64,000 nucleotides of DNA from Escherichia phage a48. The translations under genes and the position numbers were made by a program. The notes below the pieces were generated by a model, which saw only the letters and a list, made by a program, of their open reading frames with translations, did not search any database and had not been told where the DNA came from. Below are positions 29,175 through 47,577 of the stretch, one piece after another (the stretch's first letter is position 1; every line of letters starts with the position of its first letter). Where the stretch lies: the sequence record OQ067375.1; one strand, 5' to 3'.

Positions 29175-30155
29175 TTATTTCAGAAGAGTAACCTCAGCAA
29201 TTTCTTCCCAACCGTTTTTGTCGGTCATAATAAAGTCAGCAAGATAAAGAGCAGTACGCAGTGAAACATTGCGTAAACGATTAACATTAACTTTCATCCA
29301 TGATAATGCTTTATAAGTTTCTTCATCAGAAAGACCACGCTTTTGCATCATGTCGGTTGAAAGAATAACATCTTCAACCCTGACCATAATTTCTTCATTA
29401 GTGTGAACACCCAAATCCAAATAAACCGAGCGGGACACTAATGCTTGTAAATGTGGAGCAAGTTTAGTACCACGGTCTAATTCGCGGTCAATGTCAACGT
29501 TTGTGATAAAAACAATCGTTCCTTTAAATTCAAACTCACGCTCAATGCCTTTTTCTTCTAAGTAAGAAGACGCAGTGCTCCAGCAGACTTTACGGGTCTC
29601 TCCAGTGTCCAGAGCAGCTTTCAGAAGATTAAGAATGTCCATATCAGAGAAAACATCCACATCATCAATCAAAAGGACAGAATTCTCTTCACGATTATTC
29701 CAGAGCTGTTCATAAAGACCGATACCAGAGATTTTACCGTTAATGCTTTTATATTCAATGTATCCAATATCATTTGCTTTATTTAAAGCTTTATCTAAAG
29801 AATATGTTTTACCTATACCTGCCGCGCCAGAGATAATTAATGAACGAATATTTCCATTAATAATACCATTCGTCATCATTCCCATAACATTAAATCTTTT
29901 ATTAATGCGGGTTTTCATATCTTCATATGATTCTTTAACTTCTTCAACTTTTACACCATCATATGAAATGTCTGATTTGTAAACCCAAACACCGCGACGC
30001 TTACCGTCAATTTCAACAAAAACTTTACCATCTCCTTGTGCATCTACCGGAGCATTATCTGGGAACCATTCACCTAAGAGCTCAAAAGTTCCAGAGATTT
30101 CTTTACCGAAGTAGATACCCTTATTGATAGTTACAGTTTTCATTTTATTCTCCAA
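29175..30155 (-). CDS. P-loop ATPase (AAA-like)
   Basis: 326-aa ORF; Walker A GAAGIGKT, Walker B VLLIDDVD; leader and first codons MENKMK shared with ORF 3578..3826. Confidence 0.65.
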   Translation of the reverse strand: MENKMKTVTINKGIYFGKEISGTFELLGEWFPDNAPVDAQGDGKVFVEIDGKRRGVWVYKSDISYDGVKVEEVKESYEDMKTRINKRFNVMGMMTNGIINGNIRSLIISGAAGIGKTYSLDKALNKANDIGYIEYKSINGKISGIGLYEQLWNNREENSVLLIDDVDVFSDMDILNLLKAALDTGETRKVCWSTASSYLEEKGIEREFEFKGTIVFITNVDIDRELDRGTKLAPHLQALVSRSVYLDLGVHTNEEIMVRVEDVILSTDMMQKRGLSDEETYKALSWMKVNVNRLRNVSLRTALYLADFIMTDKNGWEEIAEVTLLK

Positions 30156-30175: not shown

Positions 30176-30207
30176 GTATAGTACCATAAAGCTTTATGCT
30201 TGTAAAC
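30176..30207 (-). promoter_or_regulatory. T4-type early promoter (repeated cassette)
   Basis: gtatagtacc ... gtaaac block; drives the P-loop ATPase gene. Confidence 0.55.
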
Positions 30208-30237
30208 AGTTTTGTGAAAAATTTTTGAAATAAAAAA

Positions 30238-30255
30238 GGGAGCCCGAAGGCTCCC
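30238..30255 (-). other. intercistronic UUCG-tetraloop hairpin (after the nucleotidyltransferase-fold gene)
   Basis: Plus gggagcc-cgaa-ggctccc preceded by an A-run (U-run on the transcript). Confidence 0.6.
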
Positions 30256-30257
30256 TA

Positions 30258-31271
30258 TCATTTATAATAACTTCGGTGGTTTTCAAGATAGACCTTCTCA
30301 AGGAAGTCATCCCAGAAACTCATGTCTACTGTTTTAGGCATACCGTTCTTAGAAGCTTCAGTAGATGCTGCTTCTACTTGATCGACCACATCTTCCAAAA
30401 ACTCTTGAACGGTTTTAAATGGATGTTTACCCAACTTCACGTCGAGAATAAATGGAGCATCTTGAAGTGGATAAATCAAGTCGCCAGTTTTGTAAATTTC
30501 CAATAGTTGAAGTCCACCACGACAAGCATGACTCAAAGCTTTCCAGTCAATACCTTCATTGGCTTCAGCCTTACGAGCACGTTCACCATATTCAGCATCT
30601 AATTTGTTCAGTGACTGCTTAAGCTCAATAAGAGAAAGAGTTGTCTGATATTTACGACCCAACACTGTGTAAAACGTCTGTGGGCCTGTTTTCTCATGAT
30701 TATGGAACACCCATTCACAGAATTCGTTTTCTGGAAGACGATGCTTAATATCTTCAACTTTAGTGCGACGCTGCTTAATAGAACCATCTTCTTGGTAATC
30801 AACCCATTGCTCGGGGATTTGATTAACTACTTTCAATACATCACGTAATGCAGCCAAACGAGAACCCTTGACACCGTATTTAGAAGCTTGCTTGCGGACA
30901 TATCCTAAATATGATTTCATGTTAGTCGTATAAAAACGAGAACGGTTGTCTTGAATAAACTTCCACACATCAGGCAAATCAGATTTAACCACTAGTTCAG
31001 GTGGAGTGTGAAGCATATCCAATGCTACAGTTTCACCATCTGCCGCTAATTTAAAGAAATATTTAAGACTGTATAGTTCATGGTCAATATCATCTTTAGT
31101 GTTTTTAGATGATGTGTTGTTAGTGTTTTTACTCATGTGCTCTTTGACATTTCCGATAAGAATATCGCGAGCAGGAGGAACAAAGATTTCTTTAAAATCT
31201 ACATCAGATTCTGGGGTAGAAGTTCCATAAAGATGACTACCAAAATAGCTTTTCATTACTGTTTTCATCAT
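30258..31271 (-). CDS. nucleotidyltransferase-fold protein (Pol-beta superfamily)
   Basis: 337-aa ORF with GS...DxD motif YFGSHLYGTSTPESDVDF. Confidence 0.6.
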   Translation of the reverse strand: MMKTVMKSYFGSHLYGTSTPESDVDFKEIFVPPARDILIGNVKEHMSKNTNNTSSKNTKDDIDHELYSLKYFFKLAADGETVALDMLHTPPELVVKSDLPDVWKFIQDNRSRFYTTNMKSYLGYVRKQASKYGVKGSRLAALRDVLKVVNQIPEQWVDYQEDGSIKQRRTKVEDIKHRLPENEFCEWVFHNHEKTGPQTFYTVLGRKYQTTLSLIELKQSLNKLDAEYGERARKAEANEGIDWKALSHACRGGLQLLEIYKTGDLIYPLQDAPFILDVKLGKHPFKTVQEFLEDVVDQVEAASTEASKNGMPKTVDMSFWDDFLEKVYLENHRSYYK

Positions 31272-31729
31272 TCAGCCTTATATTCAATAACAGGACACAC
31301 TTTAGCTTTACGAGCTTTTAAAAATTCAACGATAATCGATTTCTTAGGTTGAATAGGAGGTAAACCTTTATACGCCCTATCAATATTTTCTACGTGTAAA
31401 GCATAATCCTTTTTCCATTTATAATCTTTATATTTTTCACGCAAATGTGCAGGAATAACAAATGAACCGATAATAAGTAAAACAACCAAAAGCGCAAGTA
31501 TAAATGCTGATGGAAGCAAAGTCCATAAACTACCAAAAATAAGCCAACGCTGTAGGCTTTCTGCACAAATAATTGTTAGCCCTACGAGTATAGCACATCC
31601 AAAAATAGAAACGAAAAATGTAGGAATGGCAATAGACCAAAAATATGCGCATAGTGTCTTAGGTCGTTGCCATTCATCGTTAAACAATTTGAATAATTTA
31701 TAGTGCCAAGAGTTTTCATTAATAATCAT
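31268..31729 (-). CDS. integral membrane protein
   Basis: 153-aa ORF with about three hydrophobic helices. Confidence 0.5.
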   Translation of the reverse strand: MIINENSWHYKLFKLFNDEWQRPKTLCAYFWSIAIPTFFVSIFGCAILVGLTIICAESLQRWLIFGSLWTLLPSAFILALLVVLLIIGSFVIPAHLREKYKDYKWKKDYALHVENIDRAYKGLPPIQPKKSIIVEFLKARKAKVCPVIEYKAE

Positions 31730-31731
31730 AA

Positions 31732-32253
31732 TTATCCTTTCATTGAAGGCGTAACGGTTGTTAAATACTTAATCATAGCTTCAGCTTCTGATTTTGATAA
31801 TGAAATTTCTTCATTGTTTTGACGAATAGAAATAAAATCCGGATGACGGTCACCACCAGCTTTTAAAACACACATATAAGTATCAGTTTCATCTTCAATA
31901 TCTGAAATGATTGAAGCAGTTCCACATGAATGTGGTTTTTGATAAATCAATACAGCTTTTCTTCCACCGTTTGACTGTTCATAAACTTTTAACACATCAA
32001 ACAAATCGCTTCTTTTATCAATAGCTAAGATGTTGTTTTCATCTTCAATATTAAATCCTTCGGATACTTCATAAAGTGTCACCCATAAATCACCAATATC
32101 AATAACAGCGTTCACTTTTCCATGACTTTCAAGAGCATGACAAATTTTCTTGATTTCGTCATAACTCATTTTAATAATATCATCTCCTTGAATAAGAAAG
32201 ATGTCATTTTTAAATTCAACACGAATTAAACCACTTCCACTTGAAATAAACAT
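31732..32253 (-). CDS. hypothetical protein (paralog pair member)
   Basis: 173-aa ORF; shares GFNIE(D/S)E and C-terminal EAxAxxxYLxxVxPxM motifs with 32260..32817. Confidence 0.55.
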   Translation of the reverse strand: MFISSGSGLIRVEFKNDIFLIQGDDIIKMSYDEIKKICHALESHGKVNAVIDIGDLWVTLYEVSEGFNIEDENNILAIDKRSDLFDVLKVYEQSNGGRKAVLIYQKPHSCGTASIISDIEDETDTYMCVLKAGGDRHPDFISIRQNNEEISLSKSEAEAMIKYLTTVTPSMKG

Positions 32254-32259
32254 ATTTCC

Positions 32260-32817
32260 TCACTTTGAAATCATAGTTGGAATGACAGAATCAAGATAAG
32301 TCTTTAGCGCAATAGCTTCGTCTTTGGTAAATGTGACAATATGTGATCGAAAATCGTCAATTTGGCGAATAGTTAAGACATCTCCATCTTCATAACATTT
32401 TGATACGTTTAAAACAGTTTCATCATTCTGACTGCAAGCGTTAGTAATAATAGCATTGCAATTTTTAAACCATTTTAAACTATGTTTTCTTTCATTAGAA
32501 TAATAAAAATATTTAATCTTATCTATAAAACTATCCCAATGGATAACTGATAAACACATTGACTCGCTTTCAATATTAAATCCTGGGCATGAAGAATAAA
32601 AATGAACTTTATTCTCATCATTGATGCTTACAATTTTATCAGTATAAGGATTTTCAATTTGGGTTAAATGAATGATTTCACTAGGCGTAAAATATAGCAT
32701 ATCGTCTTCTTGTGTCAAACGATACATATTATTTACTTTTTCTATAGCTAATTCACCAAAAAGCGGACTAACTTCTAATACTAATCGTTTCATATTGATT
32801 CTCTTCGACTCACTCAC
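32260..32817 (-). CDS. hypothetical protein (paralog pair member)
   Basis: 185-aa ORF; shares motifs with 31732..32253. Confidence 0.55.
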   Translation of the reverse strand: MSESKRINMKRLVLEVSPLFGELAIEKVNNMYRLTQEDDMLYFTPSEIIHLTQIENPYTDKIVSINDENKVHFYSSCPGFNIESESMCLSVIHWDSFIDKIKYFYYSNERKHSLKWFKNCNAIITNACSQNDETVLNVSKCYEDGDVLTIRQIDDFRSHIVTFTKDEAIALKTYLDSVIPTMISK

Positions 32818-46121: not shown

Positions 46122-46197
46122 TGGTCGAGGCAGTAGGGATCGAACCTACGACCCAGGACTTAGAAGGTCCTTGCTCTTCCTTCTGAGCTATGCCCCG
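46122..46197 (-). tRNA. tRNA-Arg (anticodon UCU), CCA encoded
   Basis: Hand-folded cloverleaf: acceptor CGGGGCA/TGCCTCG, D-stem GCTC/GAGC, anticodon loop CTTCTAA, T-loop TTCGATC. Confidence 0.9.
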
Positions 46198-46200
46198 TAA

Positions 46201-46866
46201 TTAAAATTTCATTTTTCGACCTTTAAACCATCCTTCTGGAATTGGGTCAGTTTTCTTAATACGTTTAGAAACTTTTTCATCTAATGAATGAATCCACATC
46301 ATACCAAATTGGGAATTCTTTTCACCTTTCTGGTGATTATTTTTAGCGTGAATTTCTTTCATTTTATTAATAGTTTCAAGAGTATGATGCTTATTTAAAA
46401 ATCTGCTATTATTTAAAAATTTTTCCTTGTATTCAGGAGTTGACCATAAACGTTTAAATACATTTGAACCATTTTGACGATATTTTTCTTGAAGTAAAAT
46501 ATCATTTTTAAAACGTGACTTAAACGATTTAGCTCCTTTTAAACTAGCGTCTTTCTTCTGATTTAGCATCTCAGGAATATTTATATGATCCCATCCACCT
46601 TCACCGCCAAGTTTTAAATTATACACATCTGGTCTATTTAAAAACTCTTCTGTGACAATATTTTTCTCGGCTTCAAGCATAGATTCTTTATCATCAAAAT
46701 ATTCTAATATTTCTTTAGAAAAATTTTCTATACCATACCGGTCTTGGGCTCTTTTTAATAATTTACCAGAACCCATATATCCATCATCTAAATTTTCGGT
46801 AGAATGCACACCAATATAAATTTTATTATTAATTTTATTTGTTATTTTATAAAGATAAAAATGCAT
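46201..46866 (-). CDS. segB: GIY-YIG homing endonuclease (SegB-like) inside the tRNA cluster
   Basis: 222 aa from MHFYLYKITNKINNKIYIGVH...YMGSG (GIY-YIG motifs); ORF track's longer start would overlap the upstream tRNA. Confidence 0.8.
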   Translation of the reverse strand: MHFYLYKITNKINNKIYIGVHSTENLDDGYMGSGKLLKRAQDRYGIENFSKEILEYFDDKESMLEAEKNIVTEEFLNRPDVYNLKLGGEGGWDHINIPEMLNQKKDASLKGAKSFKSRFKNDILLQEKYRQNGSNVFKRLWSTPEYKEKFLNNSRFLNKHHTLETINKMKEIHAKNNHQKGEKNSQFGMMWIHSLDEKVSKRIKKTDPIPEGWFKGRKMKF

Positions 46867-46912
46867 ATCAGTCCTTAATAAAGAACTGAGCGTCTCACGA
46901 CGAGTCATAAAT

Positions 46913-46999
46913 TGGTGGGGAGTGGTGGAGTCGAACCACCCGAGTCGCAATGACAATGGATTTACAGTCCACACCGCTACCTCTACGGGATAACTCCCC
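46913..46999 (-). tRNA. tRNA-Tyr (anticodon GUA), class II with long variable arm, CCA encoded
   Basis: Hand-folded: acceptor GGGGAGT/ACTCCCC (7 bp), anticodon stem-loop GTGGA-CTGTAAA-TCCAT, long variable arm, T-arm GGTGG-TTCGACT-CCACC. Confidence 0.7.
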
Positions 47000-47008
47000 T
47001 AATTAATT

Positions 47009-47085
47009 TGGTGACCCAGACCAGATTTGAACTGGTAACCTTTCCCTTATGAGGGGACTGCTGCTAACCATTGAGCTACAGGGCC
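47009..47085 (-). tRNA. tRNA-Ile (anticodon CAU; Met assignment not excluded), CCA encoded
   Basis: Anticodon loop CTCATAA, T-arm ACCAG-TTCAAAT-CTGGT; one acceptor-stem mismatch. Confidence 0.75.
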
Positions 47086-47086
47086 T

Positions 47087-47162
47087 TGGTGCTGATTGAC
47101 GGAATCGAACCGCCGACGTCCTCATTACAAGTGAGGTGCTCTACCTACTGAGCTAAATCAGC
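47087..47162 (-). tRNA. tRNA-Thr (anticodon UGU), CCA encoded
   Basis: Minus-sense GCTGATTTAGCTCAGTAGGTAGAGCACCTCACTTGTAATGAGG...GGTTCGATTCC...CACCA. Confidence 0.9.
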
Positions 47163-47164
47163 AA

Positions 47165-47251
47165 CGGAGGCGATAGGATTTGAACCTATGAGTCGCCGGA
47201 GCGACTGCCGGTTTTCAAGACCGGTGCATTAAACCACTCTGCCACGCCTCC
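47165..47251 (-). tRNA. tRNA-Ser (anticodon UGA), class II, CCA not encoded
   Basis: Minus-sense GGAGGCGTGGCAGAGTGG...CCGGTCTTGAAAACCGG...GGTTCAAATCC; 2-nt spacer to tRNA-Thr. Confidence 0.9.
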
Positions 47252-47253
47252 AG

Positions 47254-47327
47254 TCTCCGTGGCAGGATTTGAACCTACGACATTCTGCTCCCAAAGCAGA
47301 CGCTCTACCAAACTGAGCTACACGGAG
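47254..47327 (-). tRNA. tRNA-Pro (anticodon UGG), CCA not encoded
   Basis: Minus-sense CTCCGTGTAGCTCAGTTTGGTAGAGC...TCTGCTTTGGGAGCAGA...GGTTCAAATCC. Confidence 0.9.
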
Positions 47328-47337
47328 TAAATTAAAT

Positions 47338-47411
<74 letters not shown>

Positions 47412-47416
47412 AAATT

Positions 47417-47503
47417 TGGTGCGAGAAGTGGGACTCGAACCCACAAGGAAATCATTCCGCAGCATTTTAAGTGCTGTGCCTTTACCAATTTGACCATTCT
47501 CGC
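47417..47503 (-). tRNA. tRNA-Leu (anticodon UAA), class II, CCA encoded
   Basis: Minus-sense GCGAGAATGGTCAAATTGGTAAAGGCACAGCACTTAAAATGCTG...GGTTCGAGTCC...CACCA, matches T4 tRNA-Leu. Confidence 0.9.
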
Positions 47504-47504
47504 G

Positions 47505-47577
47505 CTGGGAATAAAGGACTCGAACCTTTGCATCTAGCAGTCAAAGCGCTATGCCTTACCAACTTGGCTAATTCCCA
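47505..47577 (-). tRNA. tRNA-Gln (anticodon UUG), CCA not encoded
   Basis: Minus-sense TGGGAATTAGCCAAGTTGGTAAGGC...GCTTTGACTGC...GGTTCGAGTCC; abuts tRNA-Leu. Confidence 0.9.

Follow-up and report, generated by a model that had tools for sequence, protein, structure and literature searches.

RNA repair was first exemplified by the Pnkp and Rnl1 enzymes of bacteriophage T4. Together they form the classic healing-and-sealing pair of this phage, and in 2008 the reversal by phages of damage from anticodon nucleases that excise a nucleotide, such as RloC, was left open (PMC2610378). Burroughs and Aravind (2016), as reported in papers citing that work, gave the name RlaP to a family of polymerase beta-type nucleotidyltransferases, PF10127, because its members are linked to RNA ligases. 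Iyer et al. (2021) stated that RlaP occurs among jumbo phages in a pattern that mirrors the occurrence of RNA ligases, and predicted that RlaP replaces nucleotides lost to exonucleolytic trimming, e.g. by RloC, before ligation (PMC7824862). Here we describe the gene at 30258..31271 in a stretch of 64,000 nucleotides from Escherichia phage a48 (OQ067375.1; hereafter the window), the predicted product of which is the Tequatrovirus orthologue of T4 NrdC.11. We favor, with moderate confidence, the interpretation that NrdC.11 is a catalytically intact long form of RlaP, an RNA 3'-terminal nucleotidyltransferase that would act as the gap-filler in phage tRNA healing and sealing.

Both the gene and the role proposed for it are already in print. 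A match between nrdC.11 orthologues and the nucleotidyltransferase domain COG3541 was reported by Nolan et al. (2006; PMC1524935), and T4 NrdC.11 was named explicitly as an RlaP by Carruthers, Fatma and Huang (bioRxiv, December 2025), who characterized PfRlaP from P. fluorescens and PaRlaP from P. aeruginosa (PMC12776372). These two enzymes added one or two nucleoside monophosphates (NMP, or dAMP) to the 3'-OH of RNA and did not act on 3'-phosphate ends, DNA or proteins, preferred Mn2+ or Co2+, with Mn2+ favored over Mg2+, and acted preferentially on the 5' half of a substrate mimicking cleaved tRNA; aminoacylation was partly regained for tRNA-Asp lacking one anticodon-loop nucleotide (PMC12776372). 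The product, a 3'-OH end, suits ligases that join a 5'-phosphate, such as T4 Rnl1 (PMC12776372; PMC2610378). The crystal structure of PfRlaP consists of an N-terminal nucleotidyltransferase domain and a C-terminal helical domain with a cleft between them.

Identity and distribution of the gene

The 337-amino acid open reading frame (ORF) reported at 30258..31271 in a preliminary description of this DNA is present in the ORF list, and its coding strand, which that description did not give, is the minus strand. Plus-strand ORFs across the gene are at most 76 amino acids long. The first ATG overlaps the stop codon of the preceding gene as ATGA, with AAGG a few bases 5', and RefSeq orthologues start at the second ATG for a product of 336 amino acids. 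The N-terminus of the product is MMKTVMKSYFGSHLYGTSTPESDVDF. The gene and the parts of its product were located as follows.

30258..31271, minus strand: coding sequence of the nrdC.11 orthologue, 337 amino acids from the first ATG or 336 from the second ATG (31268), RefSeq style
30987..31271, minus strand: N-terminal polymerase beta-type nucleotidyltransferase core, residues 1-95, the portion alignable with canonical RlaP
31236..31241, minus strand: G11-S12, nucleotidyltransferase hG[GS] motif, from homologue conservation
31197..31205, minus strand: D23-V-D25, putative metal-binding DxD, from conservation; aligns with D37 and D39 of short RlaP
31083..31085, minus strand: D63, putative third catalytic carboxylate; invariant and aligned with the invariant D73 of short RlaP
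30858..30902, minus strand: conserved helix motif Y124-x3-Q128-x2-K131-Y132-G-x-K135-G136-x-R138; Y124 aligns with the invariant Y128 of short RlaP (extended hhalign)
30642..30824, minus strand: variable beta-rich insert, residues ~150-210, from AlphaFold strands, low conservation and gaps; no reliably aligned short-RlaP columns
30519..30590, minus strand: C-terminal helical signature of the long subfamily, Y228-G-x-R231...D242-W-K244-x3-H248-A-x-R251

A total of 326 of 336 aligned residues (97%) were identical to T4 NrdC.11 (T4p095, NP_049709.1; RefSeq product 'nucleotidyltransferase'), and the region was 98% identical to many Tequatrovirus genomes by megablast. This match, together with the tRNA cluster described below, identifies the window as coming from a T4-like phage. 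Gene order is that of T4 nrdC.9, nrdC.10 and nrdC.11, placing the gene in the T4 orthologue group by both identity and position. An identical product (100%) is encoded by phage vB_EcoM_OE5505.

We found nrdC.11 homologues by tblastn in 1564 phage records, including T4-like phages of Escherichia, Klebsiella, Aeromonas, Acinetobacter, Vibrio and other hosts. The gene had been described as part of a variable block; its neighbors are indeed variable, but the gene itself, as these records indicate, is not. Homologues of the product numbered 2904 in a 90%-clustered database and 3501 among 50% representatives, 830 of the latter at E<=1e-30. A canonical short RlaP query of the phage collection gave only 80 records, compared with the 1564 of the long type; most of the 80 were from phiKZ-like jumbo phages, and Tequatrovirus was not among them. 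The names attached to nrdC.11 orthologues in GenBank include 'thioredoxin', 'putative HNH homing endonuclease' and 'hypothetical protein'; the first two look like mis-annotations propagated from the neighboring nrdC and mobD genes.

The segment from nrdC.11 to mobD.3 is missing from a viable genome-reduced T4, and nrdC.11 of T4 can be deleted in the laboratory (PMC9825161). The T4 record OL964745.1 (159,752 bp) retains only residues 299-337 of nrdC.11, the last 39 codons, from which we take it to be a deletion derivative, in keeping with the dispensability of this segment. Dispensability in laboratory hosts fits an accessory counter-defence role.

Family assignment and catalytic residues

The product matched Pfam PF10127 ('RlaP, RNA repair pathway DNA polymerase beta family') with 44 bits against a cutoff of 23 (E=2.9e-11) and, over its full length, PHROG 388 'nucleotidyltransferase' (E=1.5e-137). 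Searches of the same product returned only a sub-threshold MntA motif match from NCBIfam and zero relatives from PDB sequence and profile comparison, and PADLOC models returned nothing, i.e. no defence-system nucleotidyltransferase such as a CD-NTase. The GS...DxD signature noted earlier near the N-terminus is confirmed, the stretch YFGSHLYGTSTPESDVDF containing both G11-S12 and D23-V-D25. The Pfam and PHROG matches and the number of homologues lie far beyond chance.

Conservation was examined in 42 diverse representatives (34-54% identity), in which G11, S12, G16, S22, D23, D25, N57, D63, W103, Y124, Y132, R231, K244, H248, A249, R251 and P268 were invariant. Nearly invariant positions included D61, D85, Q128, K131, K135, G136 and R138, and toward the C-terminus Y228, G229, D242, W243, K279 and G281. 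We also counted residues in ORFs from 77 viral and 67 bacterial loci (144 homologues). G11 was present in all 77 viral and 66 of the 67 bacterial homologues, with S or A at position 12, and D63 occurred at the same frequencies (77/77 and 66/67). Conservation of the DxD aspartates had been chosen beforehand as one of the points on which the assignment should stand or fall, and on this point it stands: the motif was present in 77/77 viral and 65/67 bacterial homologues and invariant in both alignments (A1 and A2). An Asp at position 61 was found in 95% of the homologues including the a48 product, whereas the T4 reference (NC_000866, 55435..56445) has Asn here (residues 61-63 are encoded at 31083..31091 of the window), and D63 is thus more likely than D61 to be the third metal ligand.

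The product carries the complete RlaP catalytic set of hG[GS], DxD and a third conserved Asp, and RlaP enzymes are described as having 'three strictly conserved aspartic acids' (PMC12776372). The gene is real and conserved, and its product is almost certainly an active enzyme.

Predicted structure and relation to short RlaP

An AlphaFold prediction made with a 59-sequence alignment had a mean predicted local distance difference test (pLDDT) score of 88.2 and a predicted template modeling score of 0.72; a single-sequence prediction (pLDDT 41) was discarded. The alignment-based model contains the polymerase beta-type core expected from the preliminary description, with a beta-alpha-beta arrangement of strands 3-10, 24-31, 45-47 and 62-68 and helix 12-15, followed by helices to about residue 149. 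That description had a long helical domain after the core. Helices are present, including a C-terminal bundle of residues 214-336, but the region is not purely helical and holds a beta-rich insert at residues ~155-209 (strands 155-159, 165-169, 185-192, 196-203 and 206-209).

For comparison with canonical RlaP we aligned 13 short proteins of ~255-270 amino acids, each full-length on PF10127, and compared them with the NrdC.11-type profile by hhalign (probability 92-94%, E 1e-7 to 5e-7). G11-S12, D23, D25 and D63 aligned with S24-G25, D37, D39 and D73 of short RlaP. No significant alignment was obtained beyond about residue 135, and we therefore treat NrdC.11 as a distinct 'long' RlaP subfamily, in agreement with the placement of T4 NrdC.11 in cluster 5 rather than 1a of the RlaP sequence similarity network (PMC12776372). 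An alternative, global-style hhalign alignment equated K244-x3-H248-A-x-R251 with the K-x-Y-x-Y-A-L-R helix of short RlaP at a probability of 0.1%, and for this reason we make no claim that the C-terminal domains are homologous.

Genomic context of long RlaP

A scan of 185,579 species genomes gave 80 full-length long-type bacterial loci at 30-53% identity, many of them on megabase-sized chromosomal contigs. In 16 of the 80 an RtcB, RtcA, Pnkp, Hen1, Ro60 or HD protein was encoded within 8 kb of long RlaP, and together with five viral loci these make up the repair-gene association of the long subfamily. One of these is a Nitrosospira contig (L112), in which Ro60, RtcB, RtcA, long RlaP, short RlaP and Hen1 are followed further along the same strand by Pnkp, all confirmed by Pfam. 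The long homologue of this contig scored 53 bits on PF10127, a partial match like that of NrdC.11, and its short neighbor 175 bits over the full length. A second locus (L156) has the order Hen1, Pnkp, long RlaP, short RlaP. Among divergent phages, RtcB (Pfam E=6e-129) was encoded 2.4-3.4 kb from the nucleotidyltransferase in two loci (L077, L068), and three others (L070, L071, L079) have an HD-domain gene 5-51 nucleotides downstream of it. The bacterial operons tie the NrdC.11 subfamily itself, and not only its distant cousins, to RNA repair.

The HD-domain gene (~170 amino acids, Pfam HD E=3.5e-9) lies 0-72 nucleotides 3' of long RlaP in the three viral loci just named and in two bacterial loci (L093, L155). 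Its product may be a 3'-end-healing phosphohydrolase partner of long RlaP.

A separate canonical short RlaP was observed in 20 of the 80 bacterial loci, and in 18 of the 20 it lies directly downstream of long RlaP. The tandem, with a gap of 7-313 nucleotides, was seen in L112 (8001-9746), L084, L085, L097, L101, L102, L109, L110, L123, L132, L134, L138, L142, L145, L149, L153, L156 and L158. The GS, DxD and third Asp are invariant in the short RlaPs of these tandems, and the same residues are near-universal in the long homologues. This arrangement suggests a division of labor or a heteromer.

The phage loci of the KVP40 and Aeromonas type (L050-L056, L062, L068) have the nucleotidyltransferase within a few genes of nicotinamide adenine dinucleotide (NAD) salvage genes, which encode NadV/NAMPT, a NatV-like nicotinamide mononucleotide adenylyltransferase-Nudix protein and a Prs-like ribose-phosphate pyrophosphokinase.

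Proposed role

In the mechanism that we propose, an anticodon nuclease leaves a 2',3'-cyclic or 3'-phosphate end, which phage Pnkp would first turn into a 3'-OH. NrdC.11 would then replace the nucleotide trimmed by a nuclease such as RloC, refilling the anticodon loop, and Rnl1 would finally join the 3'-OH to the 5'-phosphate. The residues D23, D25 and D63 are predicted to hold a pair of divalent metal ions (by analogy, probably Mn2+), and the enzyme would use nucleoside triphosphates (NTPs) to add one or two NMP, untemplated, to the 3'-OH of broken RNA. The RNA 3'-OH acceptor, the limit of one or two nucleotides and the metal preference are borrowed from the literature on distant relatives. 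The T4-type enzyme would share this activity, and its role would be counter-defence tRNA repair. A phage with an identical protein has genes annotated as polynucleotide kinase and RNA ligase ~80 kb from its nrdC.11 orthologue.

Several observations weigh against this proposal. No RtcB, RtcA, Pnkp, Hen1, Ro60, HD or ligase homologue was found in the window, and in T4-like genomes nrdC.11 is not linked to pseT or rnlA, unlike canonical RlaP with its associated ligases. No recognizable repair gene was present within 8 kb in 64 of the 80 bacterial loci, many of which are on short contigs. The PF10127 match is confined to residues 7-135 (profile positions 23-142 of 249), and the reliable hhalign stretch, which includes the Y124-Y128 pair, ends at about the same residue; the insert and the subfamily-specific C-terminal motifs could give NrdC.11 a different substrate. 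RlaP biochemistry comes from PfRlaP and PaRlaP, which belong to another cluster of the similarity network than NrdC.11, and even for those two enzymes the role of RloC antidote is hypothetical (PMC12776372). The little NTP specificity of these enzymes also means that such an antidote would yield mostly products with the wrong nucleotide.

Alternative functions

The retention by bacteria of both forms of RlaP, in tandem, with catalytic residues intact and within repair operons, raises the possibility that long RlaP is functionally distinct from the canonical form. It might then restore a specific excised nucleotide, e.g. the wobble base removed by RloC, in a manner dependent on tRNA structure. 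We regard this as a tentative and rather doubtful extension of the RlaP assignment. If true, the two-enzyme tRNA repair of T4 would be a three-enzyme pathway that reverses lesions deemed irreparable.

Resemblance of fold is the one argument for a protein or small-molecule substrate, with NrdC.11 acting as MntA does in the AMPylation of a HEPN toxin or in the manner of kanamycin nucleotidyltransferase. The match to MntA (NF047752) is at the level of a motif, with 13.3 bits over 18 residues against a cutoff of 60, and does not identify an antitoxin. The product is 337 amino acids long compared with ~100-140 for the MntA type, and no HEPN toxin gene adjoins it. RlaP is the significant family match, PfRlaP and PaRlaP left E. 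coli proteins unlabeled (PMC12776372), and the context of the bacterial homologues is RNA repair rather than toxin-antitoxin pairs. We consider nucleotidylylation of a protein or small molecule to be unlikely.

A two-component module of NrdC.11 with the adjoining NrdC.10 ATPase was also considered. The preliminary description placed a P-loop ATPase at 29175..30155, and we agree: the product has a Walker A motif (GAAGIGKT, residue 110), a Walker B motif (LLIDDVD, residue 161) and weak AAA-type Pfam matches. The features that bear on this arrangement are listed below.

30237..30256, minus strand: intrinsic-terminator-like hairpin with an 8-bp stem, UUCG loop and U-run, beginning 1 nucleotide past the nrdC.11 stop
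30178..30206, minus strand: promoter-like site before nrdC.10, TTTACA-17-TACTAT with extended TG; consensus match only
29175..30155, minus strand: nrdC.10 orthologue, P-loop/AAA-like ATPase with weak AAA-type Pfam matches; PHROG 1250, function unassigned

The two genes adjoin here and in T4. Of 78 viral loci from IMG/VR, 30 have both within 8 kb, all 30 at 52% nucleotidyltransferase identity or above. The terminator hairpin and promoter-like site lie between them, and in many loci so do one to three unrelated small ORFs. None of the 80 bacterial loci has NrdC.10, which was also missing from three viral loci despite 82% nucleotidyltransferase identity (L006, L008, L036) and from nearly all viral loci below 65% identity (the exceptions being L067, L044 and L042). 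Given this layout of terminator and promoter, the intervening ORFs and the patchy co-occurrence, NrdC.10 is not a conserved partner; a link to the ATPase is not supported, and we judge a two-component module to be quite improbable.

A role in tRNA end repair was suggested earlier, based in part on four tRNA genes in the window said not to encode their CCA ends. We found nine tRNA genes at 46122..47577 (minus strand), in the order Gln-Leu-Gly-Pro-Ser-Thr-Ile/Met(CAT)-Tyr-Arg; three of these (Ser, Pro, Gln) lack CCA and six encode it. The Rfam scan of the window returned tRNAs only. The 3' end of tRNA-Gln abuts the 5' end of tRNA-Leu. The tRNA-Tyr at 46913..46999 is weak (30.3 bits against an Rfam cutoff of 29), and is not known to be among the tRNAs of T4. 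The three genes without CCA would suit NrdC.11 as a phage CCA-adding or CCA-repair enzyme, as would the ability of RlaP enzymes to extend RNA 3'-OH ends and to label full-length tRNAs in total RNA (PMC12776372). Against this, the CCA-adding/poly(A) polymerase family PF01743 gave no match even at E<=0.1, and the product does not qualify as a class II CCA-adding enzyme; none was among the fold-search matches listed. RlaP discriminates little between NTPs and adds no more than one or two nucleotides (PMC12776372), and the bacterial long homologues neighbor ligases and healing enzymes rather than tRNA-maturation genes. T4 pre-tRNAs are processed by a route that depends on BN nuclease and tRNA nucleotidyltransferase of the host and on RNase P (PMC11143913); the host CCA enzyme is thus not replaced by one from the phage. 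A CCA-end function is unsupported by these results, and we hold it to be very unlikely.

That NrdC.11 makes a nucleotide or oligonucleotide signal or decoy against signaling defence (HalB-like oligo-dA, or a CD-NTase-like product) is the least probable of the alternatives and barely credible: similarity to the HalB core, its one argument, is limited to the generic nucleotidyltransferase core, PADLOC was negative, no CD-NTase or cGAS structure was among the fold-search matches listed, and the family and context evidence indicates RNA ends and not signal synthesis.

Other features of the locus

Upstream of nrdC.11, a 153-amino acid predicted membrane-protein gene (PHROG 944; 31268..31729, minus strand) occupies the position of T4 mobD, with the ATGA overlap to nrdC.11. 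It is preceded by tandem paralogues of the type 'y05I-like putative transcription factor' at 31732..32253 and 32260..32817 (minus strand); each contains the domains T4_y05I_N and T4_y05I_C, with Pfam E values as low as 1e-38. A perfect MotA-box-like TTATGCTTTA is located at ~31403 (minus strand), inside the upstream gene and ~130 nucleotides 5' of the nrdC.11 start. No TAnnnT -10 was present at the canonical spacing from this box, and we therefore make no claim of a MotA-type middle promoter for nrdC.11. The strongest upstream sigma-70-like site was the following.

32691..32718, minus strand: TTGACA-16-TATATT (11/12); consensus match only

This site is a candidate early promoter of the unit that ends at the terminator, and may serve nrdC.11.

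Discussion

Our analysis establishes the identity of the gene, its family, the conservation of its catalytic residues, its fold and the repair context of its bacterial homologues. It adds no new class of system, since the idea is already in the literature (Burroughs and Aravind 2016, through papers citing it; Iyer et al. 2021; Carruthers et al. 2025). The gene itself was assigned to a nucleotidyltransferase COG in 2006 and to RlaP in 2016, and was cited by name in 2025. For the step that would restore a nucleotide, missing from T4 tRNA repair as known, NrdC.11 is the obvious candidate, and over 1500 sequenced phage genomes encode it. The value of the work lies in correcting the widespread 'thioredoxin' and 'HNH endonuclease' mis-annotation of nrdC.11 orthologues, and in assigning the phage enzyme to a separate long subfamily, which in bacteria is found paired with canonical RlaP.

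The closest known system is T4 NrdC.11, which has the same orientation, lies upstream of nrdC.10 and belongs to the same Pfam and PHROG families. The longest ORF in a48 has one additional N-terminal Met, and the mobD homing endonuclease gene that overlaps the nrdC.11 start in T4 is absent here. More distant are kanamycin nucleotidyltransferase ANT(4'), the MNT/HEPN pairs, Hailong HalB and the nucleotidyltransferase-like protein 3c18 of Exiguobacterium, with at most 16% identity and a global TM-score of ~0.3 or less. Their substrates are antibiotics, toxin proteins or dATP for oligomerization, and none has a family-level sequence match with NrdC.11. The class II CCA-adding enzymes (PF01743) are also of the polymerase beta superfamily and carry out untemplated addition to an RNA 3'-OH, but differ in domain organization and have no sequence match. 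Canonical RlaP shares with NrdC.11 the N-terminal polymerase beta nucleotidyltransferase, with the GS, DxD and third Asp agreeing column for column, and may also share the helical domain that follows. Operons with RtcB/RtcA and Pnkp/Hen1 contain canonical RlaP as well as bacterial members of the long subfamily. NrdC.11 has in addition a ~60-residue beta-rich insert and invariant C-terminal motifs of its own. The tandem of long and short RlaP in bacteria recalls the split pairs of CC-adding and A-adding enzymes.

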